Source: Candidatus Helarchaeota archaeon (GTDB lineage: Archaea > Asgardarchaeota > Lokiarchaeia > Helarchaeales > RDOG01). From it: a stretch of 64,000 nucleotides of DNA. The stretch's first letter is position 1; every line of letters begins with the position of its first letter. The stretch spans positions 1,297,432 to 1,361,431 of the forward strand of contig JAHPZH010000001.1 in NCBI GenBank assembly GCA_019058315.1, given 5' to 3'. This document shows, piece by piece, positions 1 through 62,080 of this stretch. Under the pieces are notes generated by a model. That model saw only the letters and a list, made by a program, of their open reading frames with translations. It was not told where the DNA came from and ran no database searches. Both the position numbers and the translations under genes were made by a program.

Positions 1-756
1 GATGCACAATGGGCTTTAGCAACTTCTACCTTTTTTGACGGTATATGGCATTTAATTCAATCAGATAATGAGATGAATTTCTCTAAAAGGAATGAATTTT
101 TGAATATAGCAATAAATTATCTAAAGAATGCTTTACAAATCTTTGAAAAAGCGGGTTATGAACAAAAAAGGGATGAAATTCTAAATTATTTAGAAATGAT
201 TAAAGACGAAAAAGAAATTCTTGCTTCTGCACTTAATATTATAGAAAAACCTGAAATTTCGAAAAGCACCGTTGGAATTTCAGCACCATCGTGTCCCATT
301 GAAATAAGTTCATCAGTAAATATAGAAGAAATGCAAGAAACGGATATGAAAACAGAATCTGAATTAAATTGGGCGAAAAGAATTCATCATATTTATTTTC
401 TTTTACCAAATGGTGTCTGTATTTATGACCAATCCTTTAAAAAAGAAAAAGAGATTGAACCACATTTAGTTACTGGATCTTTAGCTGGTATTTCATCTTT
501 AATTCAAGAGTTAACACAAAATAAAACCAAAATAAAAATCGTTGAACAAGAAGAAATGACAATCCTCCTCGAGCATGGAGAAAATTTGAGTGTTGCTTTA
601 ATAACTGAAGAAAATCTAATCACCTTACAAAATAAATTAACACAATTAATTAATGATGTAGAAGATTTCTATCAAGAAGAATTGGTTGCATTTTCAGGAG
701 ATATAAGCGTTTTTTCAAAAATTGGGAAATTTATTCAAAAGATATTTGAAAGCTAA
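1..756 (+). CDS. TPR/SNAP-like solenoid + C-terminal longin-like domain protein, 5' part outside window (paralogue 1 of 5)
   Basis: Frame is open from base 1 (DAQWALATSTFFDGIWHLIQSDNEM...) and aligns with the C-terminal ~250 aa of the 3345, 6979, 42847 and 48208 paralogues, including the ISAPSCPIEISSS linker and terminal domain. Confidence 0.85.
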   Translation, partial: DAQWALATSTFFDGIWHLIQSDNEMNFSKRNEFLNIAINYLKNALQIFEKAGYEQKRDEILNYLEMIKDEKEILASALNIIEKPEISKSTVGISAPSCPIEISSSVNIEEMQETDMKTESELNWAKRIHHIYFLLPNGVCIYDQSFKKEKEIEPHLVTGSLAGISSLIQELTQNKTKIKIVEQEEMTILLEHGENLSVALITEENLITLQNKLTQLINDVEDFYQEELVAFSGDISVFSKIGKFIQKIFES

Positions 757-881
757 ATAGGAAGCGATTAAAAAATAATTTAATAATAAATCTATATTTA
801 GCTTTTTTTTAATAATACTTTCAGTGTACTCTCTCTGTGGATTATCTGTTTAATCAGAATACTCATTTGGGGAATACTTTT

Positions 882-897
882 TAAGTTTAAATACTAA
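882..897 (+). repeat. Left copy of 16-bp inverted repeat TAAGTTTAAATACTAA (contains TATA-like TTTAAATA)
   Basis: Exact reverse complement of 3198-3213. Confidence 0.75.
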
Positions 898-960
898 AGA
901 TATTATGAGGTAGTCTCGATAGTTCTATCAAATCCATTTGCTAATCAAAAGAAAATTAAA

Positions 961-1875
961 TTGGTCTTAGATCCACTATCTGAATCATATAATTTCCAAA
1001 GTTCCCAGTTCCTTTCTGATCCCGAAATTGAACCTAAGATGTTGGAAATGATTAATTCGGCCACCGAAGAACTTCTTTTAATTTCTCCTTGGATTTATAA
1101 AGACGTTATTTTGGAATCATTAATAATAGCTCGTAATAGAGGAATTATAGCTAAAATTATTGTCCGTAAGTTTAAGATTAATCGGGATAACATGAATCAT
1201 CTTATTTCAATTCAAAAATTGGATATGAATGGGATTCAAATTGCATTTACAGATAATATTCATGCAAAAATTTTGATAAAAGATGGGAAGGAACTCCTAC
1301 TCTCTTCTAAAAATATGATTGATTCTAATGCAATTGATATGGGAATTTGGAACAGGATTAAGAACGAAGTTAAAAAAGCTAGAGATGAGTTTTACTTGTT
1401 ATACAATCAACGATTTTATGATTCAAACTACATTGATTTTTCCAGTTTAAATCTTAACCTCGATACTTTTAATGATGATATTGTAATGGATATTTATGGA
1501 AAAAAGTTTGGGAAACTGTTTGGGAGGTTTAAAATCGTAATGTATGAGGGAAATAAAATTTTTGTTTCTAAAGAAAATATAATTTTCTGTGTTCATGCTA
1601 TAGCTAATAAGATATTGGAGAATCTTGGAATAAAATTTAAAAGAATTTCAACAGATCAGCTATGGAGGCTAAGGATTGATGGTCATTGGCACCTAATTTC
1701 TGAATATCCAGGTTCTATAAAAGAAGAACATATCATGAAAGCTAAATTATTACTAAATTATGACAGAAAATTGCATTTATTTTGGTCAAATGATGATGAT
1801 AGACAGTGTGTCGTTATTACTGATGGAAAAATAGCTTTATTTATCAATAATATTAATTATTTACACATTTTTTAA
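961..1875 (+). CDS. Phospholipase D superfamily (single HKD, Nuc-like) protein with unknown C-terminal domain
   Basis: INSA..ELLLISPW, ARNRG, HAKILIKD (HxKxxxxD) and SSKN motifs; start may be the ATG at 1039. Confidence 0.8.
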   Translation: MVLDPLSESYNFQSSQFLSDPEIEPKMLEMINSATEELLLISPWIYKDVILESLIIARNRGIIAKIIVRKFKINRDNMNHLISIQKLDMNGIQIAFTDNIHAKILIKDGKELLLSSKNMIDSNAIDMGIWNRIKNEVKKARDEFYLLYNQRFYDSNYIDFSSLNLNLDTFNDDIVMDIYGKKFGKLFGRFKIVMYEGNKIFVSKENIIFCVHAIANKILENLGIKFKRISTDQLWRLRIDGHWHLISEYPGSIKEEHIMKAKLLLNYDRKLHLFWSNDDDRQCVVITDGKIALFINNINYLHIF

Positions 1876-3344: not shown

Positions 3345-6300
3345 TTGATGACACATCCAAATAAAAAAGAAATTTTAGAGCAAATTAATGATTTATTTCT
3401 TCAAACAGAAAATGAAATATTGAAATATAATTGGATCGGGGCAATAGAACTTTTAAAAAAAGTCGAAAAGATTATTTTAAATGAAAAATTAAGCGTAAAA
3501 GAAATTGAGTGTGAATTATATTATAAATTGGGGGAATTATACCAAGTAAATGCAAATTTCGAAAAAAAAGAAGATGATGTCTTAAAAAATTTTCAATTAT
3601 CTATTCTAAATTTTCAAAAAGCATACGATATATATGAAAAATTAGAAAATGAAGAAAAAATTAATGAACTTTCAGGTTCTATTAATTTCATAACATATTT
3701 ATTGGGATCTAATGAAGGAAACGAAGAATCTCTATTAAAAAATGCGAAGGACTATTTCAACAGAGCAAAACAAATTAATTTAAAAAAAAGTAATTTTCCT
3801 GATTTCTTAAAAATGGCTTTATTAGAAAGTAGGGCATTAAATTTGCTCCTTGGAGAAAAAATTATACGTATTGATGAAAAAACAGATTCCATAGCATTAG
3901 CTTCAGAATATGAAAATTTAATGGCAGATATTTGGGAAAAAATTAAAAAAGGGCAAAATTTTCCCGAAATTTGTCACTATCATTTTTTTACAAGCACTAT
4001 GGAGTTCTGTCAATGGGCATTATCTTATTTACCTGCTGAAAATTCAATAAATAAGCAACATATTATGAACAATTATGATAGAATAAAAGAATTTATAGAT
4101 ATCTTTGAAAAAAAATCAAATGCACCCAGTTTATTTGTAGCTTATACATTCATCGCCTGGTTTAATACGATTCTTGCTTCTTATTTTGTAGATAGTCAAT
4201 TTGAGCAAAAAAAACATTTAAAAATTGCAGAAAAATGGCTTAAAAAAGCAGACCAGCTATTAACTAAAAATAATACTAATAAAGCTTTGGTTTTATTTTA
4301 TTATACCCGCTTCGCCGTTTCTATACTACTAATTTCTCTAGGTTTTTTTGCAAAAGATTTTAAACATGTTATGGGAGATTTAGACGAATGTACTAATTTA
4401 TTATACGTTTATTTTCCTAGAATATTACTTGCCCATTCGGTATTTTATGCAGCATCAACATTTGCAGTTGGTGCTTTAAGTCTTTCAATTCCGGATGTTA
4501 ATACACGCATCAATCTTGCTAATATTGCTTTGGATTTACTTGAATCTGCAATTCCGAAGATTTCAATCATAACAAATCCAGATTATAAAATATATGATTT
4601 ATTTAGAAAGGGTGTCTTATGTGTAATCAATGCGTTATTAGGAGATTTAATTAAAGATAGAAAAGAAAGCTCTACTCATTTACAAATAGCATTAAATCTT
4701 TTCAATGAAATATCGAAATTTAGCAATCCAAAAATAGAAAACACATTTCTTCATTTTAATTATTTATTTGGTGTAGCTAGAACGGGAATTATATTTGCCA
4801 AAATTTCAGCAAATGAATCCGAAAAGGTTAGTTATTACTTAAAGGCAATAGATTTACTTTTAAAGAGCAAAAAGATATCAATTTCACTGTTCAGCATTGA
4901 AAATCTATTTTTAATAGGCGATCTTTATTATGAAGTAGGAGAACTAACAAATGATGATAAGATATTTAAAAATTCTTACTCATCGTATATAGAAGCAATA
5001 GAATATTGTAAAGATAAGGGTTATTCCAATTTGGTAGGTTCAGGTTATGTAAAACTTGCACAAATCGAGGATAGACTTGGAAATTATCTTTCAGCAGCAG
5101 AGAATTATAAAAAAGCAATTAATTCATTTAATAAAGCAATTTTTACCCTTACTTATTCTAGGGCGAGTAAAAAAATTGAGAAATTAAAAAATTATATAGA
5201 AGCTTGGGAACTTATAGAATCCGCAAAATCGTTTCATTTACAAGAGGATCATAACAAAGCACAGCTTAACTATGAACATGCAAGTCAAATATTAAAAGAT
5301 ATTCGTGAATATAATTTCGAGTCTCCTTTTTATTCCGCATGGGCACTTTTGGAAAAAGCAGAGTCATTAAGTAAAATAAATAAGCATCAGGAAGCTGCTG
5401 CAACTTATATTGTGAGTAAAGGAAATTTTGAAGATGCAGTTGAAACTTTTAATTCATACATAAGTAAAAGAAAATCTTCTAAAGAGACTGAGAGAATTTC
5501 AAAATTAATTCAAGTAGCAAAAATTAGAATAACTTATTGTTCAGCACGTTATCATATTGAAACTGCAAGAGTTGAAAGTAAGAATGGAAACCATTTAATC
5601 GCTTCTGAACTTTATAATAAAGCTGGTACTCTTTTTTATAAGATATGCCAATCATTTAGATTAAAAAGAGAAAAAGATGAATTAACTGCTATATATTACT
5701 TATGTAAAGCTTGGGAAAATATGGAACGGGCGGATCAAGATACAACACTTTATGCAATTGCTTCAGGATTATTTGAAAAAGCTAGCAACATTTTTCCAGA
5801 AAGTAGAATGAAAAAATTGTCCACTGGAAATTCTCTATATTGCTCAGCCTTACATTATGGTGCTTTATTTGATGAATCCACTGAATTAGAAAAGAAGATT
5901 AATTATTATAAAAGAATAAAAATGAATTTAAGGGAAGCAGCAAAAAATTATAAAGTAGGTGGCTTCGATCAAGATGCACAATGGGCCTTAGGAACGTCAA
6001 CATTCTTTGATGGTATCTGGCATTTAATACAAGCAGATAATGAGATAGATTTTACTAAAAAGAACCAATATTTAAATATCGCGACAAATTATATGAATAA
6101 TTCATTAACTATCTTTAAAGAAGCGGAATATGAGCAAAAGCAGGAGGAAATAAGGAATTATCTCGAAATGATTAGTGATGAGAAATCCATATTAACCTCC
6201 GCTTTGAATGTGATTGAAAAGCCAGAAATTTCTGCGAGTAGCATCGGTATATCAGCTCCTGCTAGTCCTGCTGAGATAAGCTCTTCAGTGAATATCGAGG

Positions 6301-6758
6301 AGATGCAAGAAACTGACCTAAAAACGGAGTCTGAATTAAATTGGAGAAAAAGAATACATTATTTATGTATATTTTTAAAAAATGGGATCTCTATTTATGA
6401 TTATACTTTTAAGTCAAAAAGTGAAATCCCACGACAATTAATTGCAAAGGAAGATCTTGAACCGCATCTAGTTGCTGGGGGGCTGTCAGGCATTTCTGCA
6501 TTAATTAAAGAATTGACACACAGTAATACTAAGATAAAGATAGTCGAACAAGAAGAAATGACCATCCTTCTCGAAGATGGAAAATATTTAACAGCTGCTT
6601 TAATAACAGAAGAAAACCTTATAACTTTGAGAAATAAGTTAATGCAATTAATTCTAGATGTGGAAGATTTCTTTCAAGAAGAATTAGAAGATTTTACTGG
6701 TGATTTAGATACTTTTAAGAAAATAGGTAAATTTGTTCAAAAAATATTTGAAATATGA
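3345..6758 (+). CDS. TPR/SNAP-like solenoid + C-terminal longin-like domain protein (paralogue 2)
   Basis: TPR-type helices (LAQIEDRLGNYLSAAENYKKA); C-terminal ~130 aa with longin pattern (IHYLCIFLKNGISIY...LVAGGLSGISALIKEL...GD..F). Confidence 0.85.
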   Translation: MMTHPNKKEILEQINDLFLQTENEILKYNWIGAIELLKKVEKIILNEKLSVKEIECELYYKLGELYQVNANFEKKEDDVLKNFQLSILNFQKAYDIYEKLENEEKINELSGSINFITYLLGSNEGNEESLLKNAKDYFNRAKQINLKKSNFPDFLKMALLESRALNLLLGEKIIRIDEKTDSIALASEYENLMADIWEKIKKGQNFPEICHYHFFTSTMEFCQWALSYLPAENSINKQHIMNNYDRIKEFIDIFEKKSNAPSLFVAYTFIAWFNTILASYFVDSQFEQKKHLKIAEKWLKKADQLLTKNNTNKALVLFYYTRFAVSILLISLGFFAKDFKHVMGDLDECTNLLYVYFPRILLAHSVFYAASTFAVGALSLSIPDVNTRINLANIALDLLESAIPKISIITNPDYKIYDLFRKGVLCVINALLGDLIKDRKESSTHLQIALNLFNEISKFSNPKIENTFLHFNYLFGVARTGIIFAKISANESEKVSYYLKAIDLLLKSKKISISLFSIENLFLIGDLYYEVGELTNDDKIFKNSYSSYIEAIEYCKDKGYSNLVGSGYVKLAQIEDRLGNYLSAAENYKKAINSFNKAIFTLTYSRASKKIEKLKNYIEAWELIESAKSFHLQEDHNKAQLNYEHASQILKDIREYNFESPFYSAWALLEKAESLSKINKHQEAAATYIVSKGNFEDAVETFNSYISKRKSSKETERISKLIQVAKIRITYCSARYHIETARVESKNGNHLIASELYNKAGTLFYKICQSFRLKREKDELTAIYYLCKAWENMERADQDTTLYAIASGLFEKASNIFPESRMKKLSTGNSLYCSALHYGALFDESTELEKKINYYKRIKMNLREAAKNYKVGGFDQDAQWALGTSTFFDGIWHLIQADNEIDFTKKNQYLNIATNYMNNSLTIFKEAEYEQKQEEIRNYLEMISDEKSILTSALNVIEKPEISASSIGISAPASPAEISSSVNIEEMQETDLKTESELNWRKRIHYLCIFLKNGISIYDYTFKSKSEIPRQLIAKEDLEPHLVAGGLSGISALIKELTHSNTKIKIVEQEEMTILLEDGKYLTAALITEENLITLRNKLMQLILDVEDFFQEELEDFTGDLDTFKKIGKFVQKIFEI

Positions 6759-6978: not shown

Positions 6979-9900
6979 GTGGGATATTCATATATGTCTG
7001 ATTTATCACATAAAGATACTCTTAATCAAATTAATGAATTAATTTATGAAGCTGAAGAGGAAGAACGTAAATATAATTGGATAAAAGTTATAGATTTATT
7101 AAAGAAAGTAAGAAGAATAAGTTCGGAAAATAATATAAAAGAATTTGAGGGAGAGGCTTATTTCCGGCTAGGGGAAGTGTATCAGATTGCTGCAGACTTT
7201 GAAAAAGAAGAAATCGAGGTCTCCAATAAATTTCAACTTGCAATAACAAATTTTCAAAAAGCATTTTATATTTTCCACGATTTACAGAACGAAGAGAAGG
7301 AAAGTGCATCAATAGCCTTTCTTAATTATTTAAAATATGTATCTGAAACTGAAAAAGTAGAGGGATCAATTTTATTAGAATCAGCAAGACTTAACTTCAT
7401 TAAATCGAAAATTTTGTTTCAAATTAAGGGCAAATTAAAAGATTCACTGAAAATGGCTATTTTTGAAAGTAGGGCTTTAAATTTACTGATAGGGGAAAAA
7501 CTTGTTCGCCTTGAAAAAACTATAAATTTAGATGAAATGGTTTTAGAACATGAAAATTTAATTATGAACATATCAGAGGAAATAAAGAAACTCCCAGTTT
7601 TTTCTGAAATTTACCTCTTTCATCTTTTTGTTGGAATGACGGATTTTGCCATTTGGTCTTCAATTTTTTTACCAATTGATAATCTACGAAAAACTCAATA
7701 TGTTAAAAGTAATCTTAACATAGTTAAAGAATTAAGTAAGATTTTCGAAAAATCTGGGGGAACATTATCAACTTTTATGGTCTATGGTTTGTGTTCGTTA
7801 TTTAATTTAATTATTTCAGCATTTATTGTTGAAGATAGGTTTGAACAAAAACGACACTTGAAATTATCCGAAAGATGGCTTAAGAAAGCTGAGAAATTAC
7901 TACCAATAATAAGAGCTGGTGGGGGATCAAATTATTCATTAGAATTTTTCTTCTTCATGCGATTCACTAATGCAATATTTCTAATATATCTTGGTTTTTT
8001 TTCAAGGAGTTTTAAACTTGCGATAGCTGATCTAACTCTTATGTTTCATTTAATGTCCTCATTCTTTCCTAGAATAACAAATGCTACTGTAGCTTTTTAT
8101 ACACTTATCGTCTTTTTGCTTGGTGCACTTGTTAGAGCTATTCCTGCTGCTCAAAGGATTGATTTTAGTAAAAAGGCATTAGACTTTATTGATTTAATGA
8201 CAATTTATATTCCACTGATTAATAATCCGAGTTATAAGACTTTCTCTGTATTTAAAAATTTTCAAACATGCATAGCTAACGCTTTATTGGGAGATTTAAT
8301 TCAAGATAGAAAGGAAAGCAAAAAATATTTAGAAACAGCTACAAAAACATTTGATAATCTTTCAAACTTAAAAATTGAACAAGATAATTTTTTCAACCGC
8401 TATTTTTTAATTTTTATGGCAAATTCGGCAAATTTAATAGCTGAAAATATGGAAGAAAAATCAGAAAAAATCAAGTACTATGATCTAGCAATTACATATT
8501 TCTCAAAGAGTGTTAAATTTGGAGGTACATTTTTAGACATCGAAAACATGTTTAGCCTTGGGACTATTCAATATAAATTAGCTAGATTAATGAATGACGA
8601 CGAAATCTTTAAAAAATCCTACGAATCATATAAAAATGCAATTGAATATTGCTCAGGAAAGGGTTATTATAATCTAGTAGGATCAGGGTTTGTAAAGCTT
8701 GCTCAAATTGAAGATAGATTGGGTAACTATCTTTCAGCTGCTGAAAATTATAAGAAAGCATTAGAATCATTTGATAGGGCTCTTATAACCTTCACTTATC
8801 TTAAATTAGGTAAAAAAATTGAAAAGTTAAAGAATTATATGAATGCATGGCAATTGATAGAAATTGCTAAATCTCATCATATAAAAGAAGATCACACAAA
8901 TGCTCAATTAAATTACGAACAAGCCAGTCATATTTTGAGTGGGATTAAGGAATACAATTTTGAAGCTTCATTCTATTCGGCTTGGGCACTTTTAGAAAAA
9001 GCTGAGTTTTTAAGCAAGCACAATAAACATCAAGAAGCTGCGGCAACCTATTTAGTCTCTAAAACTAAGTTCGACGATGCGATCGAGGCTTTAAATTTGA
9101 AATTATCTAAAAAAATAGGTATAAGAATCAAAGAGAGAGTCTCAAAATTAATTCAAGTCGCAGAAGTTCGAGAAACCTATTGTTCTGCACGATATCAAAT
9201 AGAAACTGCGAGAATTGAATCTAAGAAAGGAAATCATATACTTGCTGCTGAGTTATATAACAAAGCTAGTACTTTATTTGAAAAATTATGTCAGACCTAT
9301 AGAATTAGAAGGGAAAAGGATGAATTAGAAGCAATATTTTACTTGTGCAAAGCATGGGAGAGTATGGAGCGGGCTAGTATACAACAGGATCCATCTTTAT
9401 TCACTATTGCTTCAGACTTATTTAAACAAGCAAGCCATATCTTTCCTGATAGTAGATTAAAAAAATTATCAATAGGTAATTCACTTTATTGTACTGCATT
9501 AGAATGCTCAGCCAAATTTGACAAAACACCTGAAATAACCGAAAAAATTAGTCATTATAAAAAGATCAAAATGGTTCTTCGAGAATCATCAAAAAATTAT
9601 AAATTAGGAGGTTTCGAACAAGACGCTAAGTGGGCATTAGCTACCTCGACGTTTTTTGATGCTATTTGGCATTTAATGAAATCGGATAATGAAATCGACT
9701 TTTCAAAAAAAAGAGAATATTTGAGCATAGCATCGAATTATCTTAATGAAGCTTTAAATATTTTGAAAGATACTGAATATGAACAAAAAAAGGAAGATAT
9801 TTTAAATCATTTAAAAATGATTAAGGATGAAAAAACGATTCTAACTTCAGCGTTAAATGTTATTGAAAAGCCCGAAATTTCAGAAAGTAGTATTGGAATT

Positions 9901-10383
9901 TCGGCTCCAGCTTGTCCTATTGAGATTAGCTCTTCAGTCAGTATAGGAGAAATGCAGCAATCCGATTTAAAATCAGAGTCAGAAATGAATTGGCATAAAA
10001 AAATTCATCATATTTACATGTTTTTGCCGAAAGGAATTTGTATATATGACCAATCGTTTATGCCTACTGAACAAGAAGAATTTGAACCCCAATTGGTCGC
10101 AGGAGGATTAACAGGCATCTCGGGATTAATTCAAGAGTTAACCCAAAGTAAAACTAAGGTTAAAATAGTTGAACAAGAAGAAATGACTCTACTTCTCGAA
10201 CACGGTAAATATATGACAACTGCTTTGGTTGCAGAAGAGAATCTAATTATATTACGAAATAAATTAATTCAGTTAGTTGAGGATGTAGAGGATTTATTTC
10301 AAGAAGAATTTGAGTCGTTTTATGGAAATTTAAACGTTTTTTCAAAGGTTGGTAAATTAGTTAACAAAATATTTAAGAAATAA
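6979..10383 (+). CDS. TPR/SNAP-like solenoid + C-terminal longin-like domain protein (paralogue 3); likely start ATG 6994
   Basis: Collinear with paralogue 2 over its full length. Confidence 0.85.
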   Translation: MGYSYMSDLSHKDTLNQINELIYEAEEEERKYNWIKVIDLLKKVRRISSENNIKEFEGEAYFRLGEVYQIAADFEKEEIEVSNKFQLAITNFQKAFYIFHDLQNEEKESASIAFLNYLKYVSETEKVEGSILLESARLNFIKSKILFQIKGKLKDSLKMAIFESRALNLLIGEKLVRLEKTINLDEMVLEHENLIMNISEEIKKLPVFSEIYLFHLFVGMTDFAIWSSIFLPIDNLRKTQYVKSNLNIVKELSKIFEKSGGTLSTFMVYGLCSLFNLIISAFIVEDRFEQKRHLKLSERWLKKAEKLLPIIRAGGGSNYSLEFFFFMRFTNAIFLIYLGFFSRSFKLAIADLTLMFHLMSSFFPRITNATVAFYTLIVFLLGALVRAIPAAQRIDFSKKALDFIDLMTIYIPLINNPSYKTFSVFKNFQTCIANALLGDLIQDRKESKKYLETATKTFDNLSNLKIEQDNFFNRYFLIFMANSANLIAENMEEKSEKIKYYDLAITYFSKSVKFGGTFLDIENMFSLGTIQYKLARLMNDDEIFKKSYESYKNAIEYCSGKGYYNLVGSGFVKLAQIEDRLGNYLSAAENYKKALESFDRALITFTYLKLGKKIEKLKNYMNAWQLIEIAKSHHIKEDHTNAQLNYEQASHILSGIKEYNFEASFYSAWALLEKAEFLSKHNKHQEAAATYLVSKTKFDDAIEALNLKLSKKIGIRIKERVSKLIQVAEVRETYCSARYQIETARIESKKGNHILAAELYNKASTLFEKLCQTYRIRREKDELEAIFYLCKAWESMERASIQQDPSLFTIASDLFKQASHIFPDSRLKKLSIGNSLYCTALECSAKFDKTPEITEKISHYKKIKMVLRESSKNYKLGGFEQDAKWALATSTFFDAIWHLMKSDNEIDFSKKREYLSIASNYLNEALNILKDTEYEQKKEDILNHLKMIKDEKTILTSALNVIEKPEISESSIGISAPACPIEISSSVSIGEMQQSDLKSESEMNWHKKIHHIYMFLPKGICIYDQSFMPTEQEEFEPQLVAGGLTGISGLIQELTQSKTKVKIVEQEEMTLLLEHGKYMTTALVAEENLIILRNKLIQLVEDVEDLFQEEFESFYGNLNVFSKVGKLVNKIFKK

Positions 10384-15062: not shown

Positions 15063-15083
15063 AATACACAAAAGAGGATATTC

Positions 15084-19231: not shown

Positions 19232-19484
19232 AGAAATTCTTTATTCTTTTTTTAACAGTTGGATAGATAAAAAATCTTAAAATTTTATTAAAATATGGTG
19301 AATATGTCACTATAGCACTTATTGTAGAAGAAAATTTTAAAATCCTCTATTCAATATTATTCTACCAAAATGGAAAGGTGATATAGAGGTGTTTTTATAA
19401 GTAAAAATAATGGTTGAAAAAATTTTTACATAAATTAATTCTTATTTAAAAGCAATAATTAGATCTAATAGGTGAGATTGGATA

Positions 19485-20570: not shown

Positions 20571-20709
20571 TTATATACTTTTAAACTTCAAGCGGAGGAA
20601 GCGGTGAAACAATAGTATCTTCACATTTTTCAACTGTGGGATAATTCCATCATTCTGGAGGTATCTGAAATGTCGATGAAATATGATATCGAAACTGGCT
20701 ATGAAGATT

Positions 20710-29571: not shown

Positions 29572-30024
29572 TTAAAATTTCGACATCCAATTACTTATAT
29601 TTTTATCTATTTCCTCTTCAAAAATATCTTTTAAAACTTCATGAAATCCTTGAAATTCTTGAGTATTATACGGTAATTTTTTAACTTGATGTTCGACCAA
29701 ATAGCTACCGTATTTTATGATGAATTGTTTTTGAATTTCTTCGATTTTCTTTTTTAAATATTTTTCTTTAATTTTACCCGAGCTTCTTAAAACAATAAAA
29801 ATATGGTATTCTTCTAGACTAGAAATTAATAATTTTGAACCTCCTAACTCGATTCTTTTGATTTTCTCTCCTTTGCTAATTGTTTCTAAAAAGGTCTGAA
29901 TACTGCTTAAGAACCCTGAGAATAGAGTCTCATCTACTGTTGTTTTCCCCTCTCTTCCTATAGAATGGTTGAATAAGCAGACTCCCGAGTCCTCGATTAT
30001 GTATACCTCGTCAATTTTTTCCAA
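29572..30024 (-). CDS. Stand-alone longin-like domain protein
   Basis: VYIIEDSGVCLF...DETLFSGFLSSIQTF...IKRIELG...IQKQFI..Y...F..F pattern typical of sedlin/Mon1-type longins. Confidence 0.75.
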   Translation of the reverse strand: MEKIDEVYIIEDSGVCLFNHSIGREGKTTVDETLFSGFLSSIQTFLETISKGEKIKRIELGGSKLLISSLEEYHIFIVLRSSGKIKEKYLKKKIEEIQKQFIIKYGSYLVEHQVKKLPYNTQEFQGFHEVLKDIFEEEIDKNISNWMSKF

Positions 30025-42846: not shown

Positions 42847-45800
42847 TTAATTTTCAAATAACCTCTGAATAAATTTTCCAATTTTTGAAAAAATTTCTAC
42901 ATCTCCATTAAAGGTCTCGAATTCTTCCTTATAAAAATCTTCTATATCCCGAACTAATTGAATTAATTTATTCCTTAAAGTTGCTAAATTTTCTTCAGTT
43001 ATCAATGCAGTAGTTATATAATCCCCATGTTCGAGGAGAATAGTCATTTCTTCTTGTTCTATTATTTTTATTTTTGTCCTATTTCTAGTCATTTCTTGTA
43101 TTAACATTGAAATTCCCGTTAAACCACCAGCAACTAGTTGAGGTTCAATTTCTTCTGTCGATTTAAAAGAATAATCATGGAGAAGGATGCCACTTTTTGG
43201 TAAAAACACATATAGAAAATGAATTCTTTTAGACCAACTTAATTCCGATTCAGTTTGGAGGTCTGTTTGAGACATTTCATCAATATTTACTGAGGAGCTT
43301 ATTTCAACAGGGCAAGTTGGGGCTGAAATGCCTACACTACTTGCCGAAACTTCAGGTTTTTCAATAATTTCTAATGCAGAGGCAAGGATAGACTTTTCAT
43401 TCCTAACCATTTCAAGATAATTTTGAATTTCTTTTTTCTTTTGCACATATCCCGCATTTTCAAATATTTTTAAAGCTGTATTTAAATAATTTGTGGCTAT
43501 TACCAAATATTGATTTTTTTTATTAAAATCTATTTCATTATCGGCTTGAATTAAATGCCACACACCGTCAAAATAGGTTGAAATCGCCATTGCCCAAGTA
43601 GCATCCGGTTTAAATCCACCTAATTGATAATTTTTTGCTGATTCCCTCAGATACATTTTGACTTTCTTATAATAATCAATTTTTTGCTCAAACAAGGCTT
43701 CAAGATCAAATAATACTCCGTTTTCTAGAGCCTTACAAAATAAAGAATTGCCTAAAGATAATTTTTTCATTTTACTTTCTGGAAAGATTTCGCTTGCCTT
43801 TTTAAAAAGATCGGATGCGATAGCAAAAAGATTCGATTTATGCTCTACTTCTGCCCGTTCCATATTTTCCCAAGCCTTACATAGATAAAAAACTGCTGTT
43901 AACTCATCTCTTTCCCGCTTAATCTTAAATTGCTGACAAATGTTTTCAAAGAGAGAGCTTGCTTTATTATAAAGCTCTGCTGAGTGTAGATGGTTTCCTT
44001 TTTTACTTTCTAGTCTTGAGTTTTCTATTTGCTGACGGGCTTCGCAATAAGATTCTCTAATCTTTGCGACTTCAATTAAATCTGAAATTCTTTTAATATC
44101 CTCTGGAGATTTTTTCTTTTTTAAGTATGCATTAAGAGTTTCTGTAGCAGTTATGAATTTATTTTTAGAAACTAAATACGTTGCTGCTGCTTCTTCGTGA
44201 TTATTTTGTTTACTTAAATTTTCTGCATTTTCCAATATAGCCCATGCACTATAAAAAGGTGCTTCAAATTTATATTCACGAACATTATTTAAAATTCGAC
44301 TTGCTTCCTCATAATTTAGTTGTGCGTTATTATGGTCCTCTGTTGCATGGTATGATTTAGCTTTTTCAATAATACTCCAAGCTTGTAAATAATTGTTTAA
44401 TTTCTCTATTTTTTTACCCAATTTGCTGTAAGTAAGAGTTAATATGGCTTGATTGAATGAATCAATTGCTTTTTGATAATTATCTGCAGCAGAATGAAAA
44501 TTACCAAGTCTATCTTCTATTTGGGCGAGATTTACAAATCCCGATCCTACTAAATTAAAAAATCCTCTATTTTTGCAGAATTCTATGGCATCATAATATG
44601 CTAAACTTGATTCTTTGAATAATTTATCATCTTCAGTTAAAATTGCTAGCTCATAATAAATTTCTCCAATAAAAAATAAATTTTCAATGTAAAACCTGAA
44701 GAAACCACCGATATGATCTTTCCCCTTTATACAGAGTTCCAATGCTTTTTGATAATAATTAATCTTTTCTGACTGACTCAAGGCATTTTGTGCCATTATA
44801 ATACCAGTTCTAGAGGTATGGTTTAGATGAAATATGTAAACTTGAGTTTTATCCAATTTTTGAAAATTATAAGTTGAAAGTTCATTAAATATTCTAGTAG
44901 CTATTTGCAAATAATTGAAACTTTCTGTTTTTTCTTTAATTAAATCAGCTAATATCGCATTCGACAAGCAGGAATAAATTGATTTCACTAGGTTATACAT
45001 TTTATAATCTGGGTTATTTGCTATAGAAATTTTTTTTAATAGTTCGATTGAATTTAATGTTCTTTTTGCGAAATCAATTCTTGAAATAGGTGGAGTAGAA
45101 GGATTAATGGCACCAAGTGAAAGAATAACCATAGCATAAACAATTGCAGCTATAATTGTTATCCGAGGGAAATGAATAAATAACGATTTATGATATGATT
45201 CCAAATTCGCCATTACATGTTTAAAATCACTGGCAAAATAACCAATATATATTAAAAGTATTGCATTAGTAAATCGCATAAAATAAAATAATGTTAAAGG
45301 TGTTGTTGCATTGATTTTTTCTAATAAAACTTCTGCTTTTTTAAGCCATTTTTGAGCTGCTTTTATATATTTTTTTTGATCGAATTGATCAATTTCAGTA
45401 AATGCACCAACAATTGTATTCAAAAAAGAATAAACTGAATAAGCACCAAATAATAGCAATATCTTTGATTCTTCAATAACCTCAATAATTTTTCCAACTA
45501 GGTCAATAAACTCAATAAAATATTGTTTTCTTATTGATTCTTCAATCGGTAAGGAAAATATAGACCATATACAGAATTCAGTAACACTAATTAAATAATA
45601 ATAATTATAAATTTCAGAAAATTCTGGTTGTTTTAATATATCTTCTGTTATTTCTGTCGTTAAATTTCTAAAATCTAAAGCCAGTTTCTTGAAATCTGTA
45701 TTTTCATCAATACGAATACTTTTTTCACCAATTATTAAATTCAAGGCTCTATGTTCAAAAACTGCCATTTTTAAGGAATCTATAATATTTCCAGAATTCT

Positions 45801-46233
45801 TATAGATTTGTTTTGCTTTTTCAAAATGTGATTGAGCAGAATTTAATAGAATATTTTCCTTTCCTATTTCTGATTCAGATTCTGATATATATTTTAAAAG
45901 ATTGATAAAACCTAAGGCTGCATTTACTTTTTCTTCTCTTTTTAATTCTTTGAAAACATCATGTGCTTTATTAAAATAAGAAATCGATAACTGAAAGCAA
46001 TTTAAGACTTTTTCTTCTTCTTTTTCGAAATCTGAAGCGATGTAATAGATTTCACCCATTCTATAATAGATTTTCCCTTCAATTTCTTTATTTTTTGTTT
46101 CTGAACTAATTTTTTCTGCTTCTTTCAAAATTTCAATAGCATTATACCAATTATATTTAAATTCCTCTTCTTCAGCTTTTTGGAAAAGTTCAGTAATTTG
46201 ATCTAATCCACTACTTTGTGAGGAATTTGACAT
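42847..46233 (-). CDS. TPR/SNAP-like solenoid + C-terminal longin-like domain protein (paralogue 4)
   Basis: Collinear with 3345 and 6979. Confidence 0.85.
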   Translation of the reverse strand: MSNSSQSSGLDQITELFQKAEEEEFKYNWYNAIEILKEAEKISSETKNKEIEGKIYYRMGEIYYIASDFEKEEEKVLNCFQLSISYFNKAHDVFKELKREEKVNAALGFINLLKYISESESEIGKENILLNSAQSHFEKAKQIYKNSGNIIDSLKMAVFEHRALNLIIGEKSIRIDENTDFKKLALDFRNLTTEITEDILKQPEFSEIYNYYYLISVTEFCIWSIFSLPIEESIRKQYFIEFIDLVGKIIEVIEESKILLLFGAYSVYSFLNTIVGAFTEIDQFDQKKYIKAAQKWLKKAEVLLEKINATTPLTLFYFMRFTNAILLIYIGYFASDFKHVMANLESYHKSLFIHFPRITIIAAIVYAMVILSLGAINPSTPPISRIDFAKRTLNSIELLKKISIANNPDYKMYNLVKSIYSCLSNAILADLIKEKTESFNYLQIATRIFNELSTYNFQKLDKTQVYIFHLNHTSRTGIIMAQNALSQSEKINYYQKALELCIKGKDHIGGFFRFYIENLFFIGEIYYELAILTEDDKLFKESSLAYYDAIEFCKNRGFFNLVGSGFVNLAQIEDRLGNFHSAADNYQKAIDSFNQAILTLTYSKLGKKIEKLNNYLQAWSIIEKAKSYHATEDHNNAQLNYEEASRILNNVREYKFEAPFYSAWAILENAENLSKQNNHEEAAATYLVSKNKFITATETLNAYLKKKKSPEDIKRISDLIEVAKIRESYCEARQQIENSRLESKKGNHLHSAELYNKASSLFENICQQFKIKRERDELTAVFYLCKAWENMERAEVEHKSNLFAIASDLFKKASEIFPESKMKKLSLGNSLFCKALENGVLFDLEALFEQKIDYYKKVKMYLRESAKNYQLGGFKPDATWAMAISTYFDGVWHLIQADNEIDFNKKNQYLVIATNYLNTALKIFENAGYVQKKKEIQNYLEMVRNEKSILASALEIIEKPEVSASSVGISAPTCPVEISSSVNIDEMSQTDLQTESELSWSKRIHFLYVFLPKSGILLHDYSFKSTEEIEPQLVAGGLTGISMLIQEMTRNRTKIKIIEQEEMTILLEHGDYITTALITEENLATLRNKLIQLVRDIEDFYKEEFETFNGDVEIFSKIGKFIQRLFEN

Positions 46234-48207: not shown

Positions 48208-51200
48208 TTATTTTTTGAAGATTTTTTGAACGAATTTGTCAATTTTAGAAAAAGGTCTAATATCTCCTTGAAAATTTTCCAATTCTTCACTAAAAAAGTC
48301 TTCTACATCATTAATTAAATCTTTTAATTTATTCCTTAAAGTTTTAAGATTTTCTTCTGCTATTAAAGCTGCACTAACATAATTCCCGTGTTCGAGGATT
48401 ATTGACAATTCTTCTTGTTCAATTATTTTTATTTTTGTTTCGCTTTTAGTTACTTCTTTTATTAGCTCAAAAAGACCTGCTAATCCTCCAGAAACAAATT
48501 GGGCTTCAGATTCTTCGATAACACCAGATTTAAAGGGATATTGGTAAATACTCTCACCTTGAGGTAAAAATAAATAAATATGATGTAATCTTTTATACCA
48601 ATTTTTCTCAGATTCTGTTTGGAAATCGGTCAATTGCATTTCTTCAATATTTGCTGACGTACTGATTTCTATGGGGCATGAAGGTGCTGAAATCCCTATT
48701 GAACTAGCTGAAATAGCTGGTTTTTCAATGATATTAGATGCTGTTGTAAGTATCATTTTTTCTTTTTTGATCATATCTAAATATTGAGAAATTTCTTCAC
48801 TTCTTCTCTTGGATCCGACTTCACTGAAGAGATTTTGTGCTGTAGTAAGGTAATTTGTTGCAACATTTAAATCCCTATTCTTTTTAGTAAAATCGAGTTC
48901 ATTGTCAGCTTGAATTAGATGCCATAATCCATCAAAATAAGTCCCAGTTGCTAAAGCCCATTTTGCATCTTCCTTGAAACCCCCTAGTTGATAATTTTTC
49001 GATGCTTCCCTTAAAAATGTTTTAATCTTTTTGTAGAAATTAGTTTTTTCATTTAAATCAGTAGATTTATCAAATAGAATTCTATTTTCAAGCGCTGAAC
49101 AGAAAATAGAATTTCCTAAGGATAATTTCTTCATTTTAACAGTTGGAAAATTTTCACTAGCTTTATTAAATAAATAAGAAGCTATAGCAAATTGTTTTGA
49201 ATCCTGTTTTAATTCCGCTTTTTCCATGTTTTCCCAAGCCTTACATAAATAAAGAGTTGCGGTTAATTCATCTTTTTCCCGTTTTATCTTAAATTTATGA
49301 CAAATAGTTTCAAATAATGAACTGGCTTTATTGTAAAGCTCAGCAGCTAGTAAATGATTTCCATTTTTACTTTCTATTCTTGCAGTTTCAATATGATGTC
49401 GAGCGGTGCAATAATTTTTTCTGGTTTCCCCAACTTGAATTAATTTTTGAATTCTTTCAATATTTTCCGGGGATTTTTTCTTTAGAAATGAATCTAAATT
49501 TTGAATTGCATTTTCAAAACTTTTTTTTGCCTCTAGATATGTTTCTGCAGCCTCCTGATACATACCTCTTTTACTAATATCTTCTGCTTTCTCTAAAATG
49601 CTCCACGCAGAATAAAAGGGTGATTCATATTTATATTCACGAATTTTATTCAATATCTGGCTTGCTTTTACATAATTTTCTTGTGCTTTTATATGATTTT
49701 CATTCGTATGTTCATTTTTTGCGATTTCGATAATTTCCCATGCATTGACATAACTTTTTAATTTATTAATAGTTTTTCCGGCTTTAATATACGTTAGAGT
49801 CATTAAAGCTCTATCAAATGCGTCACTTGCTTTTTTATAATTATCTGCAGCGGCAGTGTAATTACATAATCGGTCTTCAATTTGTGCAAGATAAATATAT
49901 CCCGATCCGACTAAATTTGAATATCCTTGATCTTTACAAAATGTTATTGCATCATTATATGCCACGATTCCCTTATTAAACATATCACCATTTGTTAATA
50001 TTCCCAATTCATAATATGTTTCTCCAATCATAAACAAATTTTCAATGTAATACCATGTTTCCTCATAAATATGCTTTTTTAAAAAGAATTCAAGCGATTT
50101 TTTTAGATAATTTACCTTTTCTGATTTATCTTTTGAATGTTTTGCTAATAATAATCCAATTCTTGGATAACAATACCCAAAGACATGGCTATAATTATAA
50201 GATCGTTCCTTTGTAACTCCAATATAATTCGAAATCTCATTAAAATATTCAATAGCACTTTGTAAATGCTTGTTTCTTTTTATATCCTCAAATATATCTC
50301 CCAATCCTATATGACCCACACATAAAAGAGCTTTATAAAATTGATTATATAAAATATAATTTGGATCAATCATTATTGGAATTCTAAAATTTGTTAACAT
50401 ATCCAATATCCTATTAGCAAACTCCACTCGTTGAATACTTAACGTTGCACGACTCATAGCCCCGATCATGAAGGTAAATGCACTATAAAAAACCCCATGT
50501 GCTGCCATAATTTTAGGAAAATGTAATTTACTAGCATTAATACTTTTTTCTAAGTCTTGTAGAATTAAATTAACATCTTTTGCGAAAAAACCAATAGAAA
50601 TTAAGAACATTGCAGTGGAGAATCGCGAGTAATAAAAAAATATTAAACCTGAAACGGGGATGCTTTTTGATAAGAATTCATCTCCTTTCTTTGCGGCCTT
50701 TTGAGCTCTATTTAAATATTTTTTTTGTTCAAATTGACTCAGTGCAAAATACGCACTAAAAATAAAATTAAAAAATAAATTAGCAGCATATGAAAAAAAT
50801 AACCAAGGAAGTTTATTCGATTTTTTAAATTTACTAATTAATTCATCAGATAATTCTAGCCAATTGAGGACATGTTGTTTTATATTTTTTTTATCAATTG
50901 GTGAATAGACAATAAGCCATGCAGTATATTCCTCAATACTAATTAAAAAATGATAGAAGCAAATTTCAGGTACATTTTGTTCCTTTCTTAATTCATCCCA
51001 TATGTTTTCTAGAGTAATTTTAAATTCTAAAGATAAATCATCAAAATTTGCATTTTTATCATTTCTAATACATTTTTCAGCAAAAATCAATTCTTGTGTT
51101 CTGTTTTCTAGAACTGCCATTTTTAATGATTCTATTCCATTTCCTTTTTTGGTATTTAGGATTTTTGCATCATGAAAATTTTTTTTAGCAGATTCAAGTA

Positions 51201-51585
51201 ATAATTTTTCTTTTCCTTTCTCGGCTTCTGATATATATTTTAAAATATCAATAAAACCTAAAGTTCCTTTAATTTTTTCTTCTATTTGCAACTGAGTAAA
51301 TATTTTATATGCTTTCTGATAATATTCTAAAGCAAATTTAAAATCATTTAATACATTTTCTTCTGTTTTTTCGAAATCTGCGGCTATTTGATAGATCTCA
51401 CCAAGTTTATAATATGCTTCACCTATTTTCTCTTTAAAATTTTCAGGTTGAGTTTGATGAATTTTTTCTATATTTTTTAATATCTCTATAGCCTTTCCCC
51501 AATTATGATTGTGTTCTTCTATCTCTACTTTTTTTAAAAAGTCATTAATTACTTCTAAGCTTTCCTTTTTCGAGATATCTGACAT
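48208..51585 (-). CDS. TPR/SNAP-like solenoid + C-terminal longin-like domain protein (paralogue 5)
   Basis: Collinear with the other paralogues. Confidence 0.85.
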   Translation of the reverse strand: MSDISKKESLEVINDFLKKVEIEEHNHNWGKAIEILKNIEKIHQTQPENFKEKIGEAYYKLGEIYQIAADFEKTEENVLNDFKFALEYYQKAYKIFTQLQIEEKIKGTLGFIDILKYISEAEKGKEKLLLESAKKNFHDAKILNTKKGNGIESLKMAVLENRTQELIFAEKCIRNDKNANFDDLSLEFKITLENIWDELRKEQNVPEICFYHFLISIEEYTAWLIVYSPIDKKNIKQHVLNWLELSDELISKFKKSNKLPWLFFSYAANLFFNFIFSAYFALSQFEQKKYLNRAQKAAKKGDEFLSKSIPVSGLIFFYYSRFSTAMFLISIGFFAKDVNLILQDLEKSINASKLHFPKIMAAHGVFYSAFTFMIGAMSRATLSIQRVEFANRILDMLTNFRIPIMIDPNYILYNQFYKALLCVGHIGLGDIFEDIKRNKHLQSAIEYFNEISNYIGVTKERSYNYSHVFGYCYPRIGLLLAKHSKDKSEKVNYLKKSLEFFLKKHIYEETWYYIENLFMIGETYYELGILTNGDMFNKGIVAYNDAITFCKDQGYSNLVGSGYIYLAQIEDRLCNYTAAADNYKKASDAFDRALMTLTYIKAGKTINKLKSYVNAWEIIEIAKNEHTNENHIKAQENYVKASQILNKIREYKYESPFYSAWSILEKAEDISKRGMYQEAAETYLEAKKSFENAIQNLDSFLKKKSPENIERIQKLIQVGETRKNYCTARHHIETARIESKNGNHLLAAELYNKASSLFETICHKFKIKREKDELTATLYLCKAWENMEKAELKQDSKQFAIASYLFNKASENFPTVKMKKLSLGNSIFCSALENRILFDKSTDLNEKTNFYKKIKTFLREASKNYQLGGFKEDAKWALATGTYFDGLWHLIQADNELDFTKKNRDLNVATNYLTTAQNLFSEVGSKRRSEEISQYLDMIKKEKMILTTASNIIEKPAISASSIGISAPSCPIEISTSANIEEMQLTDFQTESEKNWYKRLHHIYLFLPQGESIYQYPFKSGVIEESEAQFVSGGLAGLFELIKEVTKSETKIKIIEQEELSIILEHGNYVSAALIAEENLKTLRNKLKDLINDVEDFFSEELENFQGDIRPFSKIDKFVQKIFKK

Positions 51586-55792: not shown

Positions 55793-55859
55793 ATTTTAAC
55801 ACGAAATTGATATTTACTTTATTTACTACAACATGCTTATTGCCTTTTCTATTAGATTT

Positions 55860-59689: not shown

Positions 59690-59824
59690 TAAGGTTCCCT
59701 CATGTTTTAATTAAAATTTTTAATATTGATTCATGAAATAAATTACAATTGGTTAATAAATTATTATTATTTCTGACTCACTATTATCTTACTAAAACTT
59801 GAAATATTATGGTTTGGGAATAAA

Positions 59825-60952
59825 ATGGATGTAAATAAATTAAGTATTGGGACCGAAGCGTCTTTTTTTCCACCATTTGAAAAGGGAATAAATACAATTA
59901 AGAAGCTTGAAGAATCGGGTTATGATTCTATTTGGTTAGCAGATCACCTGATGGCTTGGGTTCCAGAATCAATTTGGACACCAGAAATTACAGGATTAGC
60001 GGCTAAAGGAGTCAATACTCCACACATTTATTTTGATGCCCTTTGTACACTTTCAATTGCAGCGTGGAATACCGAAAAAATTCAAATAGGAACTGCCGTT
60101 ACTGAAACCTTCCGTCGTCATCCGGCTATGTTAGCGCAAGCATTTCTGACTTTAGATCATCTATCAAAAGGAAGAGCAATTCTAGGACTTGGTGCAGGTG
60201 AAGGGGAAAATATTACCCCTTATGGTATTAAATGGAATAGACCTGCAAGCAGACTAGAAGAAGCTATTAAAATAATTAAGTTGTTATGGAAAAGCGAAAA
60301 GAAGGTTGATTTTGAGGGGAAATTTTGGAAATTAAAAGATGCAGTATTAGGTTTGCCACCTTATAAAAAAGGGCAATATCCTCCAATTTGGATTGCAGCC
60401 ATGGGACCAAAAATGCTCGATATTACTGGTAAACTAGGAGATGGATGGCTGCCTGTAAATCTAGATATAAATTCATACGAAAAGGGGTTTAAAATTATAA
60501 AATCTTCAGCAAAAAAAGTAGGGCGGAATCCTGCTGAAATAACTCCATCACTATATAGTTATATAATTATTGATGAGGATTATGATGAATGCCTCCGTTT
60601 GCTTGAAACTCCAATGTCTAAGAACTTTATTCTAATAGCATCAAATGAAACATTTAGGCGATATGGTTGTACACATCCCCTTGGTGAAAATTTCTATGGA
60701 CTTCGAGACTATATACCAAGTCGATATGATCGGGAAGCTGCTCTTGATGCCATTGAAAAAGTCCCTACAGAATTATGTTCTGACAGTTATTTAATTGGAA
60801 CTCCTGAGGATATAATAGATAAGATAGAAAAATATATGGAAATTGGTCTACAACATATAGTTTTATTTAATATAACTTACTACTGTGACTCTAATAAAAT
60901 AAAAAGCTCATTTGGGGGAATAAAAAAAGTATTAGAACATTTTAAAGGTTAA
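59825..60952 (+). CDS. Luciferase-like (LLM) flavin/F420-dependent oxidoreductase
   Basis: GYDSIWLADH, GTAVT...RHP, LDHLSKGRAILGLGAGE and PPIWIAA.GP...GDGW. Confidence 0.9.
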   Translation: MDVNKLSIGTEASFFPPFEKGINTIKKLEESGYDSIWLADHLMAWVPESIWTPEITGLAAKGVNTPHIYFDALCTLSIAAWNTEKIQIGTAVTETFRRHPAMLAQAFLTLDHLSKGRAILGLGAGEGENITPYGIKWNRPASRLEEAIKIIKLLWKSEKKVDFEGKFWKLKDAVLGLPPYKKGQYPPIWIAAMGPKMLDITGKLGDGWLPVNLDINSYEKGFKIIKSSAKKVGRNPAEITPSLYSYIIIDEDYDECLRLLETPMSKNFILIASNETFRRYGCTHPLGENFYGLRDYIPSRYDREAALDAIEKVPTELCSDSYLIGTPEDIIDKIEKYMEIGLQHIVLFNITYYCDSNKIKSSFGGIKKVLEHFKG

Positions 60953-61015
60953 AAAGAATTAATATTTGAAAAATCCTAATACTTATTGAAATTAAAAAAA
61001 ATGGGATAATTAACT

Positions 61016-62080
61016 ATGATTTTAGATCCTCTAGAATTTACTTCCTTATTAATGCGATTTGCCTTTGCAATTGCCTCTATTCTTAATGCTGGGGTTTTCT
61101 TTTTGAAAGTAAAACGTGCAAAAGGATCTATGTTTGATTTTTCATCTTTTTTTGGATTAGGAATCTTTGCCCTCCTTGGTGGAATAGCAGAAATTTATTT
61201 CACCTATTACTACTACTATATTTTTGTATTTAATCAAGAATTATTTGATATTTACACATACGCAACATATGTAGGTTACTTGGGGGTAATTGGGATAATT
61301 TTTTTATCAGAAAAGATGTTTGGTAAAACAAAATATGTTTTTACCATTTCTTGTATTATTAGTTTCATTTGTGCTATTTTTTTTGTAAATTCAATTGAAG
61401 AATTACGGGTTTATACCACCATAATGCTCCCAACATCGGGGTTAATTGTTTTCATCAATTTTGGTTATTCAATGGTGTTTAAAACGACGGGCGAAATCCG
61501 GAAAAAAATGAGAAATGTATTTATTGGCTTTTTAACATTCATGATATTCTATATGCTAGATTCTGAGCTTGTAAAAAATTCTTTTCCTATTCACCCACAA
61601 ATTACAACCATTATTGCAATGCTTGGACTTATAGTAATCATTAGTTGGTGGGCATACATATTTCTCAGCTTTGAAACCTTTACTGAATTTGGGTGGAGGG
61701 AAAAATTAAAAGAACTTTATATCATTGCACCAAATGGGGGAACCTTATTCCATTATTCTTTTGAAAAAGGCACACCAGAAAAAACACCTGATCTAGTAAG
61801 TGCTGGTTTAACGGGATTTAAAGATGTTATAGCAGAAATAATACAAAGTAGGCAGAATTTAAAAGTCATGGATCATCAGGATGTAAAAATTATTTTTGAA
61901 TATGGAAATTATTCAACTTTAGCTTTAATAGCATATGAAAATTTAAAGATATATCAGTCTAAATTAGATTCCTTAATAAAGCAGTTCGAAAATTTATTCC
62001 AAGATGTTCTTTCAGACTGGAAAGGAGAGACTGAGGTCTTCCTACCTTCTAAAAGATTAATAGAAGAAATTTTTGGATGA
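61016..62080 (+). CDS. 7TM + longin-like domain protein
   Basis: Seven TMs, then WREKLKELYIIAPNGGTLFHY...LVSAGLTG...WKGE...F; same tail family as 19485. Confidence 0.8.
   Translation: MILDPLEFTSLLMRFAFAIASILNAGVFFLKVKRAKGSMFDFSSFFGLGIFALLGGIAEIYFTYYYYYIFVFNQELFDIYTYATYVGYLGVIGIIFLSEKMFGKTKYVFTISCIISFICAIFFVNSIEELRVYTTIMLPTSGLIVFINFGYSMVFKTTGEIRKKMRNVFIGFLTFMIFYMLDSELVKNSFPIHPQITTIIAMLGLIVIISWWAYIFLSFETFTEFGWREKLKELYIIAPNGGTLFHYSFEKGTPEKTPDLVSAGLTGFKDVIAEIIQSRQNLKVMDHQDVKIIFEYGNYSTLALIAYENLKIYQSKLDSLIKQFENLFQDVLSDWKGETEVFLPSKRLIEEIFG

Follow-up and report, generated by a model that had tools for sequence, protein, structure and literature searches.

Ten genes in a 64,000-nucleotide stretch of the genome of Candidatus Helarchaeota archaeon (GCA_019058315.1, JAHPZH010000001.1:1,297,432-1,361,431, forward strand; hereafter the window) end in, or consist of, a longin-like domain of about 130 amino acids, as the initial annotation of this DNA had proposed; all ten reading frames are open and they share one homologous domain. 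Our preferred explanation, in which we have moderate confidence, is that these genes are members of a single expanded, Asgard-wide longin family of the TRAPPC1/C4 (sybindin)-like kind, and that the domain is a portable C-terminal module that would act as a docking or regulatory platform for small GTPases. The ten genes encode five proteins of the TPR type, four proteins of 340-388 amino acids with multiple transmembrane (TM) helices, and one stand-alone longin protein of 150 amino acids. Four TPR-type proteins are complete at 1125-1137 amino acids; the fifth, clipped by the window start, has 1122 amino acids in the genome. The window has a G+C content of about 30%, and the host genome comprises 5.8 Mb in 12 contigs, its nearest protein relatives being labelled Helarchaeota and Promethearchaeota. 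Genes are named below by their first window position, and 7TM denotes seven transmembrane helices:

1..756, + strand: 3' end of a TPR-longin gene of 1122 amino acids whose start lies upstream of the window; longin tail at 349-753, 69% identical to the 3345..6758 tail (open reading frame C3_1294819_1298187, E 3.6e-64 against the tail profile)
3345..6758, + strand: TPR/alpha-solenoid protein of 1137 amino acids with a C-terminal predicted longin domain at 6321-6755
6979..10383, + strand: TPR-longin paralogue of 1134 amino acids; tail at 9970-10380 (E 2.1e-66 against the tail profile)
19270..19427, + strand: degraded remnant of a 19485-type longin tail, in two frames with one stop codon (profile positions 69-97 and 108-134)
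19485..20570, + strand: predicted 7TM-longin protein of 361 amino acids; helices at residues 9-225, a linker helix, and longin at residues 239-360 (DNA 20163-20567)
29572..30024, - strand: stand-alone longin protein of 150 amino acids
36352..37374, + strand: multi-TM-longin protein, subfamily B
37466..38632, + strand: 7TM-longin protein of subfamily B, in tandem with 36352
42847..46233, - strand: TPR-longin paralogue of 1128 amino acids; tail at 42850-43254, 66% identical to the reference tail
48208..51585, - strand: TPR-longin paralogue of 1125 amino acids without a hydrophobic 19-mer; tail at 48211-48621
61016..62080, + strand: 7TM-longin protein of 354 amino acids; tail at 61673-62077 (E 1.7e-58)

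Similarity and predicted fold of the longin tails

The five TPR-type tails, taken as the last ~130 amino acids, are mutually 55-69% identical, and those of 19485 and 61016 share 29-39% identity with them. The consensus that the initial annotation had drawn from these seven tails was reproduced by our alignment, and the seven-tail profile scores each of the seven at E-values of 1e-58 to 1e-66 in a search of the genome. The divergent members, i.e., 36352, 37466 and the stand-alone protein, have just 13-23% pairwise identity with the remaining tails, although the 36352 and 37466 tails are 72% identical to each other. Profile comparison by hhalign shows that they are homologous all the same: profile A2, an alignment of 74 sequences, matches the stand-alone protein (probability 97.4%, E 1.2e-11) and the 36352 tail (95.8%, E 7e-9), and profile A3, which represents full-length 7TM-longin proteins, aligns with 37466 across TM6-TM7 and the tail (97.6%).

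Sequence searches against known families stay below significance. None of the tails of the nine fused genes matches a longin-family Pfam model (Sybindin, Longin, Sedlin_N or Intu_longin_1) at E-values up to 1, and the stand-alone protein reaches 24.1 bits against Sybindin (cut-off 25) and E 0.019 against Intu_longin_1. A sequence-profile search of the PDB with the tail returned Trs23 and TRAPPC1 as the top matches at non-significant E-values (0.11-0.16). The structural evidence comes from an AlphaFold2 model of the 3345..6758 tail, built on an alignment of 74 sequences (this tail and 73 relatives), which has a mean predicted local distance difference test score (pLDDT) of 90.3, a predicted TM-score (pTM) of 0.83 and the order beta-beta-alpha-beta-beta-beta-alpha-alpha. 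The model places a five-stranded sheet between alpha1 and alpha2/alpha3, which is the longin topology, and all of its strong Foldseek matches fall within the longin/roadblock superfamily, the top ones being TRAPPC4/synbindin, Sec22b and Fuzzy. The tail does not fit the Roadblock/LC7 (MglB-type) layout, in which a long N-terminal helix precedes the first hairpin and a second C-terminal helix is missing. The tails, as modelled, are longin domains of the TRAPPC1/C4 (sybindin) kind. A longin-like fold had been proposed in the initial annotation, with a non-longin outcome as its refutation; the model and the structure comparison agree on a longin. Crystallographic structures of this superfamily in the PDB include those of MK-D1 roadblocks and a Loki longin domain.

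Membrane, TPR and stand-alone carriers of the module

The window genes represent a small part of a large family. The host genome carries 102-111 genes that match the tail profile, comprising 42 genes of the 7TM type (~350-390 amino acids), 11 of the TPR type, 17 stand-alone genes and 41 others; the last class includes proteins of 500 to 2600 amino acids and 11 proteins with an N-terminal longin domain. A search of 1.8 billion cluster representatives (50% identity) with the seven-tail profile retrieved 2511 relatives, of which 860 have E-values no higher than 1e-10, and the longin-tail family is present in 119 of the 121 sampled genomes of the phylum, with proteins of 7TM-type length in many of its families. 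The longin module appears to be attached to seven-helix bundles of two types, to TPR/alpha-solenoid parts of ~990 amino acids, or to nothing. The initial annotation had also noted the lack of a kinase, helix-turn-helix or cyclase output, and no such domain was detected by Pfam in these proteins.

For the membrane proteins, an AlphaFold2 model of full-length 19485 with 48 relatives (pLDDT 90.2, pTM 0.83) predicts seven membrane helices (residues 9-38, 48-73, 77-105, 108-132, 138-166, 168-191 and 199-225), then a short linker helix and a cytoplasmic longin domain, in agreement with the 7TM input module of the initial annotation. The same whole-protein shape is found in ESM Atlas clusters from Promethearchaeota (313 members, TM-score 0.84) and Thorarchaeota (65 members, TM-score 0.76), all annotated as hypothetical. 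The decayed 3' end of a longin tail at 19270-19427 lies immediately 5' of this gene. Hydropathy indicates seven helices in both 61016 and 37466; 61016 and 19485 are only 18% identical in the 7TM part, versus 40% in the tail. In a set of 49 7TM-longin proteins, conservation of the tail is roughly double that of the membrane part (34% vs 18%). In the case of 36352, the frame is open upstream of the first canonical start codon and encodes a helix 1 that matches TM1 of 37466 (window 36250-36352, + strand), but reading of this upstream frame shows no ATG, GTG or TTG ahead of the first membrane helix; either 36352 uses a non-canonical start, or its helix 1 has been lost and the topology of the protein would be inverted.

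The identity of the seven-helix part was also considered. In structure comparison, the 7TM bundle is as similar to microbial rhodopsin pumps and to the adiponectin receptor as it is to G-protein-coupled receptors (GPCRs). A microbial rhodopsin was rejected: the candidate retinal-binding lysine, K206, stands at the start of helix 7 and is K/R in 23 of 49 sequences, and there is no conserved mid-helix lysine. The histidine kinase-associated module HisKA_7TM (PF16927), a weak Atlas lead (0.81-0.83), was likewise discarded, since hmmscan gave no match and the sole genome-wide match (E 0.036) lies elsewhere. No transporter family was found by Pfam in the 7TM parts. The window also encodes two paralogous 7TM proteins that lack a longin (20710-21486, - strand, and 30232-31029, + strand), share a C-terminal MPDWFK(R/N)RIGW motif and have no Pfam match. 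The idea of a split receptor was dropped, as 30232..31029 has no detectable kinship to the fused 7TM parts (hhalign 43%).

The TPR-type proteins contain just one or two recognisable TPR units, near residues 530-600. The TPR_12 model scores 36.4 bits in 42847 and 33.6 bits in 48208 (above the cut-off of 30.1), the latter gene also reaching 29.7 bits against MIT, and 25.2 and 28.1 bits (below the cut-off) in two further genes. The nearest Atlas clusters by features are TPR families (0.90-0.91), and the N-terminal halves are less conserved than the C-terminal halves. The initial annotation had described these proteins as soluble TPR proteins. Its TPR assignment is tentative, being based on one or two units; solubility is likely but not secure, given that hydrophobic 19-mers (one to three, at varying positions between residues 210 and 390) occur in 8 of the 11 paralogues and are absent from three.

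Exchange of the tail between carriers is indicated by the phylogeny of the excised domains. In a tree of 80 domains, the TPR-type tails are nested in an otherwise 7TM-linked clade (Shimodaira-Hasegawa-like approximate likelihood ratio test support 98), and in a careful tree of 44 domains the approximately unbiased (AU) test rejects a single clade for all 7TM-linked tails (p 0.002). Against intermixing, a single clade for the TPR-type tails is not rejected (p 0.17), and the separation of the 7TM-linked tails is no longer rejected (p 0.09) when C3_812858, a chimera removed after inspection of the tree, is left out. The rejection is therefore mainly due to this chimera, and intermixing rests on one clear chimera together with the nesting in the quick tree. 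The gene in question (C3_812858_813919; C3:812858-813919, - strand, outside the window) encodes a 7TM part 35% and 32% identical to those of 37466 and 36352, respectively, joined to a tail that shares 62% identity with a TPR-type tail and is distant from the tails of 36352 and 37466. Its sequence shows directly that a tail has been exchanged between two types of module. The proposal that one tail subfamily is carried by unrelated input modules is upheld by this swap, of which there is at least one, and by the nesting; the phylogenetic check that accompanied it gave the mixed outcome just described.

Links to small GTPases and competing explanations

In eukaryotes, the longin fold serves as a docking platform for small GTPases. 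For the family as a whole, a link to GTPases is well supported by indirect evidence from fusions, gene adjacency and a conserved gene cluster. Four GTPases of the host genome, which encodes 103-116 Ras-like GTPase genes, have an N-terminal longin that matches the tail profile (E 2e-11, 9e-11, 1e-8 and 1e-6), and an Atlas cluster with Arf, Ras or Roc domains in ~45% of its members superposes on the 19485 tail (122 residues, root-mean-square deviation 1.6 A). A GTPase gene directly adjoins 17 of the 111 family genes; the expected number is 4.7, and the highest among 1000 permutations that allow for the abundance of GTPase genes is 11. The enrichment is found among 7TM-type genes (6/42, P 0.007; 5/31 when counted by gene runs, P 0.0085), stand-alone genes (4/17, P 0.003) and the remaining class (7/41, P 0.0005).

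These tests bear on one alternative, which we hold to be highly improbable, namely that the family is a fast-evolving, lineage-specific expansion for the recognition of other cells, viruses or surfaces, in which the N-terminus varies, the C-terminus is a constant adaptor and the GTPase neighbours are incidental. Such an expansion would be in keeping with the copy number of about 110, the tandem arrays, the chimera and the decay of one copy (19270-19427), with 7TM parts and TPR-protein N-terminal halves that vary while the tail is conserved, and with GTPases making up 2% of the genes in the genome. Yet the enrichment survives permutations that take this abundance into account, fusions to GTPases exist, the gene cluster described next is conserved across genomes, and Pfam detected no defence-type domain.

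In the conserved cluster of the host genome (locus L001), two 7TM-longin genes lie downstream of a Rab-like GTPase gene, with a second GTPase gene and 7TM-longin pair alongside. Orthologues of the GTPase (59-86% identity) on four contigs from other genomes, all metagenome-assembled and labelled Helarchaeota (two), Hodarchaeota and Promethearchaeota, are also flanked by 7TM-longin genes, mostly in pairs; the flanking genes were confirmed by profile and by TM counts. The L001 Rab-like GTPase retains full G motifs, including the catalytic glutamine, and its C-terminal end lacks any cysteine, and thus any prenylation site or prenyl anchor. Other gene arrangements were observed near GTPase genes: a conserved row of small genes (115-142 amino acids, one with four TM helices) upstream of the orthologous Rab-like GTPase (L004 1687-3237 and L006 3416-4571), none of which matches Pfam or the tail profile; a tandem array of seven 7TM-longin genes that ends at two convergent small GTPase genes (C5:1284350-1292965); and two 7TM proteins of 255-258 amino acids (L008).

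Under the preferred explanation, the longin module would be a docking or regulatory platform, probably dimeric, for the Rab/Arf-like small GTPases of the host. In the 7TM proteins, the membrane part would hold the platform at the cytoplasmic face, where GTPases devoid of a lipid anchor could be recruited or switched and a Rab-like GTPase without a prenyl group would be localised; the TPR proteins would present the same platform on a large scaffold. A more specific version, which we put forward tentatively, views the 7TM-longin proteins as receptor-type regulators, in which the bundle senses a ligand or a membrane state and a homo- or heterodimeric longin platform recruits and switches anchorless Rab-like GTPases, with the TPR-longin proteins as scaffold-borne versions. 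Tandem pairs of distinct 7TM-longin genes hint at dimerisation but are only suggestive. Complex prediction for the two L001 7TM-longin tails with the Rab-like GTPase gave a median score of 0.50, versus 0.00-0.01 for controls in which the GTPase was replaced and 0.73 for a control in which an unrelated protein took the place of tail A; the score is therefore non-specific and has no bearing on binding in either direction.

Several observations weigh against a GTPase platform, above all in the window itself. The search of all 64 kb found no gene of the Ras family or Ras superfamily, as the initial annotation had stated, and no GTPase neighbour of any of the ten genes appeared in the search of window and genome genes. 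Within the genome, GTPase adjacency of the TPR-type class is 0 of 11, and metabolic genes, not GTPase genes, surround the two TPR-type relatives examined in other genomes; in total, ~85% of family members have no adjoining GTPase gene. The fold and the 7TM-plus-longin architecture are themselves predicted, and SNARE longins, AP sigma and mu subunits and SRX score nearly as well as the TRAPP longins in structure comparison. Longin folds of these three kinds serve roles unrelated to GTPases. The small-GTPase link of the initial annotation accordingly stands for the family, with its four fusions, 17 of 111 adjacent genes and conserved cluster, and is not supported for the ten genes from which it was proposed.

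In a second alternative, less probable in our judgement, the longin tail would be a general module for protein interaction or self-regulation that does not act on GTPases, as in the SNARE (Sec22b, Ykt6, VAMP7), sigma/mu and SRX longins, and the 7TM and TPR proteins would be membrane or scaffold parts of a system for sorting, tethering or assembly. The absence of a GTPase neighbour for most family members and for all window members agrees with it, as do published Asgard longin fusions with Vps28-C, adaptin appendage and TPR (PMC11188069). It is set against the four fusions of a tail-profile longin to a GTPase in this genome, the enrichment of family genes beside GTPase genes, the conserved cluster that part of the family forms with a GTPase, and the report that Loki longins have no SNARE or coiled-coil motif (PMC4917890).

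The surroundings of 19485 bring in a further alternative. This gene and its orthologues (57-72% identity) occur in three genomes (window 13247-25667, L009 and L010) with the same neighbours, i.e., URO-D-type methyltransferases, a radical-SAM/SPASM/SEC-C protein and a sulfatase, which suggests that 19485 is tied to a catabolic locus rather than to a GTPase and adds to the points against the platform. A substrate transporter, or a regulator of local scope, would fit such a conserved catabolic neighbourhood, which is in line with the possibility, improbable in our view, that the longin tail is a cytoplasmic PAS/GAF-like ligand-binding or regulatory domain that gates a seven-helix transporter, channel or enzyme, the membrane part being the effector. 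Longins have been grouped with PAS/GAF-like folds (PMC4917890), and the resemblance of the bundle to rhodopsin pumps and the adiponectin receptor is no weaker than that to GPCRs. But the same tail is found on stand-alone proteins and on TPR proteins with no consistent membrane part, no transporter family was detected in the 7TM parts, and gating would leave the GTPase fusions and gene clusters unexplained.

Elsewhere in the window, two adjacent paralogues of 510 and 339 amino acids (54260-56879, - strand) have, from reading of their translations only, leucine-rich-repeat periodicity and a common C-terminal coiled segment.

Comparison with known systems and meaning

A close eukaryotic counterpart of a longin platform is the TRAPP core, in which the longin heterodimer Bet5/TRAPPC1-Trs23/TRAPPC4 (Pfam Sybindin, PF04099) is the guanine nucleotide exchange factor (GEF) platform for Rab1/Ypt1. 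The window tails differ in scoring below every Pfam longin model, the window encodes no TRAPPC3/Bet3 partner, and no TRAPP subunit is covalently joined to a 7TM bundle or a TPR protein. The tri-longin Rab GEFs (Mon1-Ccz1, Fuzzy-Inturned/CPLANE and HPS1-HPS4) and the longin GTPase-activating protein complexes (NPRL2-NPRL3, FLCN-FNIP and C9orf72-SMCR8) are soluble and combine several longin/DENN modules, whereas here a single longin is carried on a membrane or TPR module. The nearest prokaryotic functional analogue is the actinobacterial conservon (CvnA-D), in which a sensor kinase in the membrane is combined with a roadblock protein and a Ras-like GTPase. Its sensor is histidine-kinase-like and its roadblock is a separate polypeptide, whereas here the longin is fused directly to the membrane module and there is no kinase; the roadblock of conservon and MglA-MglB and the longin have a common core.

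Both the expansion of longins in Asgard archaea and longin fusions are already in print. For Lokiarchaeum, 41 predicted longin domains and 38 roadblock domains, some of them fused to GTPases, are given by Klinger 2016 as cited in PMC4917890 and PMC10933270. The roadblock/longin superfamily accounts for 130 asCOGs, and NPRL2-like longins are fused to two-component domains (Liu et al., preprint 10.1101/2020.10.19.343400); combinations of Asgard longins with Vps28-C, adaptin appendage and TPR domains have also been described (Makarova et al., PMC11188069). In MK-D1, small GTPase genes generally lie outside operons with longin genes (PMC10933270), whereas in the host genome part of the longin family adjoins GTPase genes. 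A search of the open full-text literature, with subscription journals and the asCOG supplementary tables outside its range, returned no description of a longin on a seven-helix bundle, of a family of 1100-amino-acid TPR-longin proteins, or of a Rab-like GTPase cluster with paired 7TM-longin genes. The 7TM-longin and TPR-longin proteins are a new architectural variant of an Asgard theme.

Asgard genomes each encode about a hundred Ras-superfamily GTPases that lack prenylation sites. To our knowledge, the regulators, membrane targeting and functions of these GTPases are largely unknown. By their sequences, the 7TM-longin genes are candidate membrane partners for them, and a longin platform in a membrane protein encoded beside a Rab-like GTPase gives concrete sets of proteins, the clearest being the cluster in L001, L004 and L007. 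The family also shows how a single module, the proposed GTPase platform, came to be distributed among different scaffolds before the origin of eukaryotes. Should the GTPase link fail, the family would still be a large and uncharacterised one, found throughout the Asgard archaea, of membrane and scaffold proteins that share a eukaryote-like fold. If the receptor-type version is true, it would amount to an archaeal receptor-to-small-G-protein pathway, and the paired genes of the conserved GTPase cluster would provide the first receptors matched to their GTPases from the archaea most closely related to eukaryotes.

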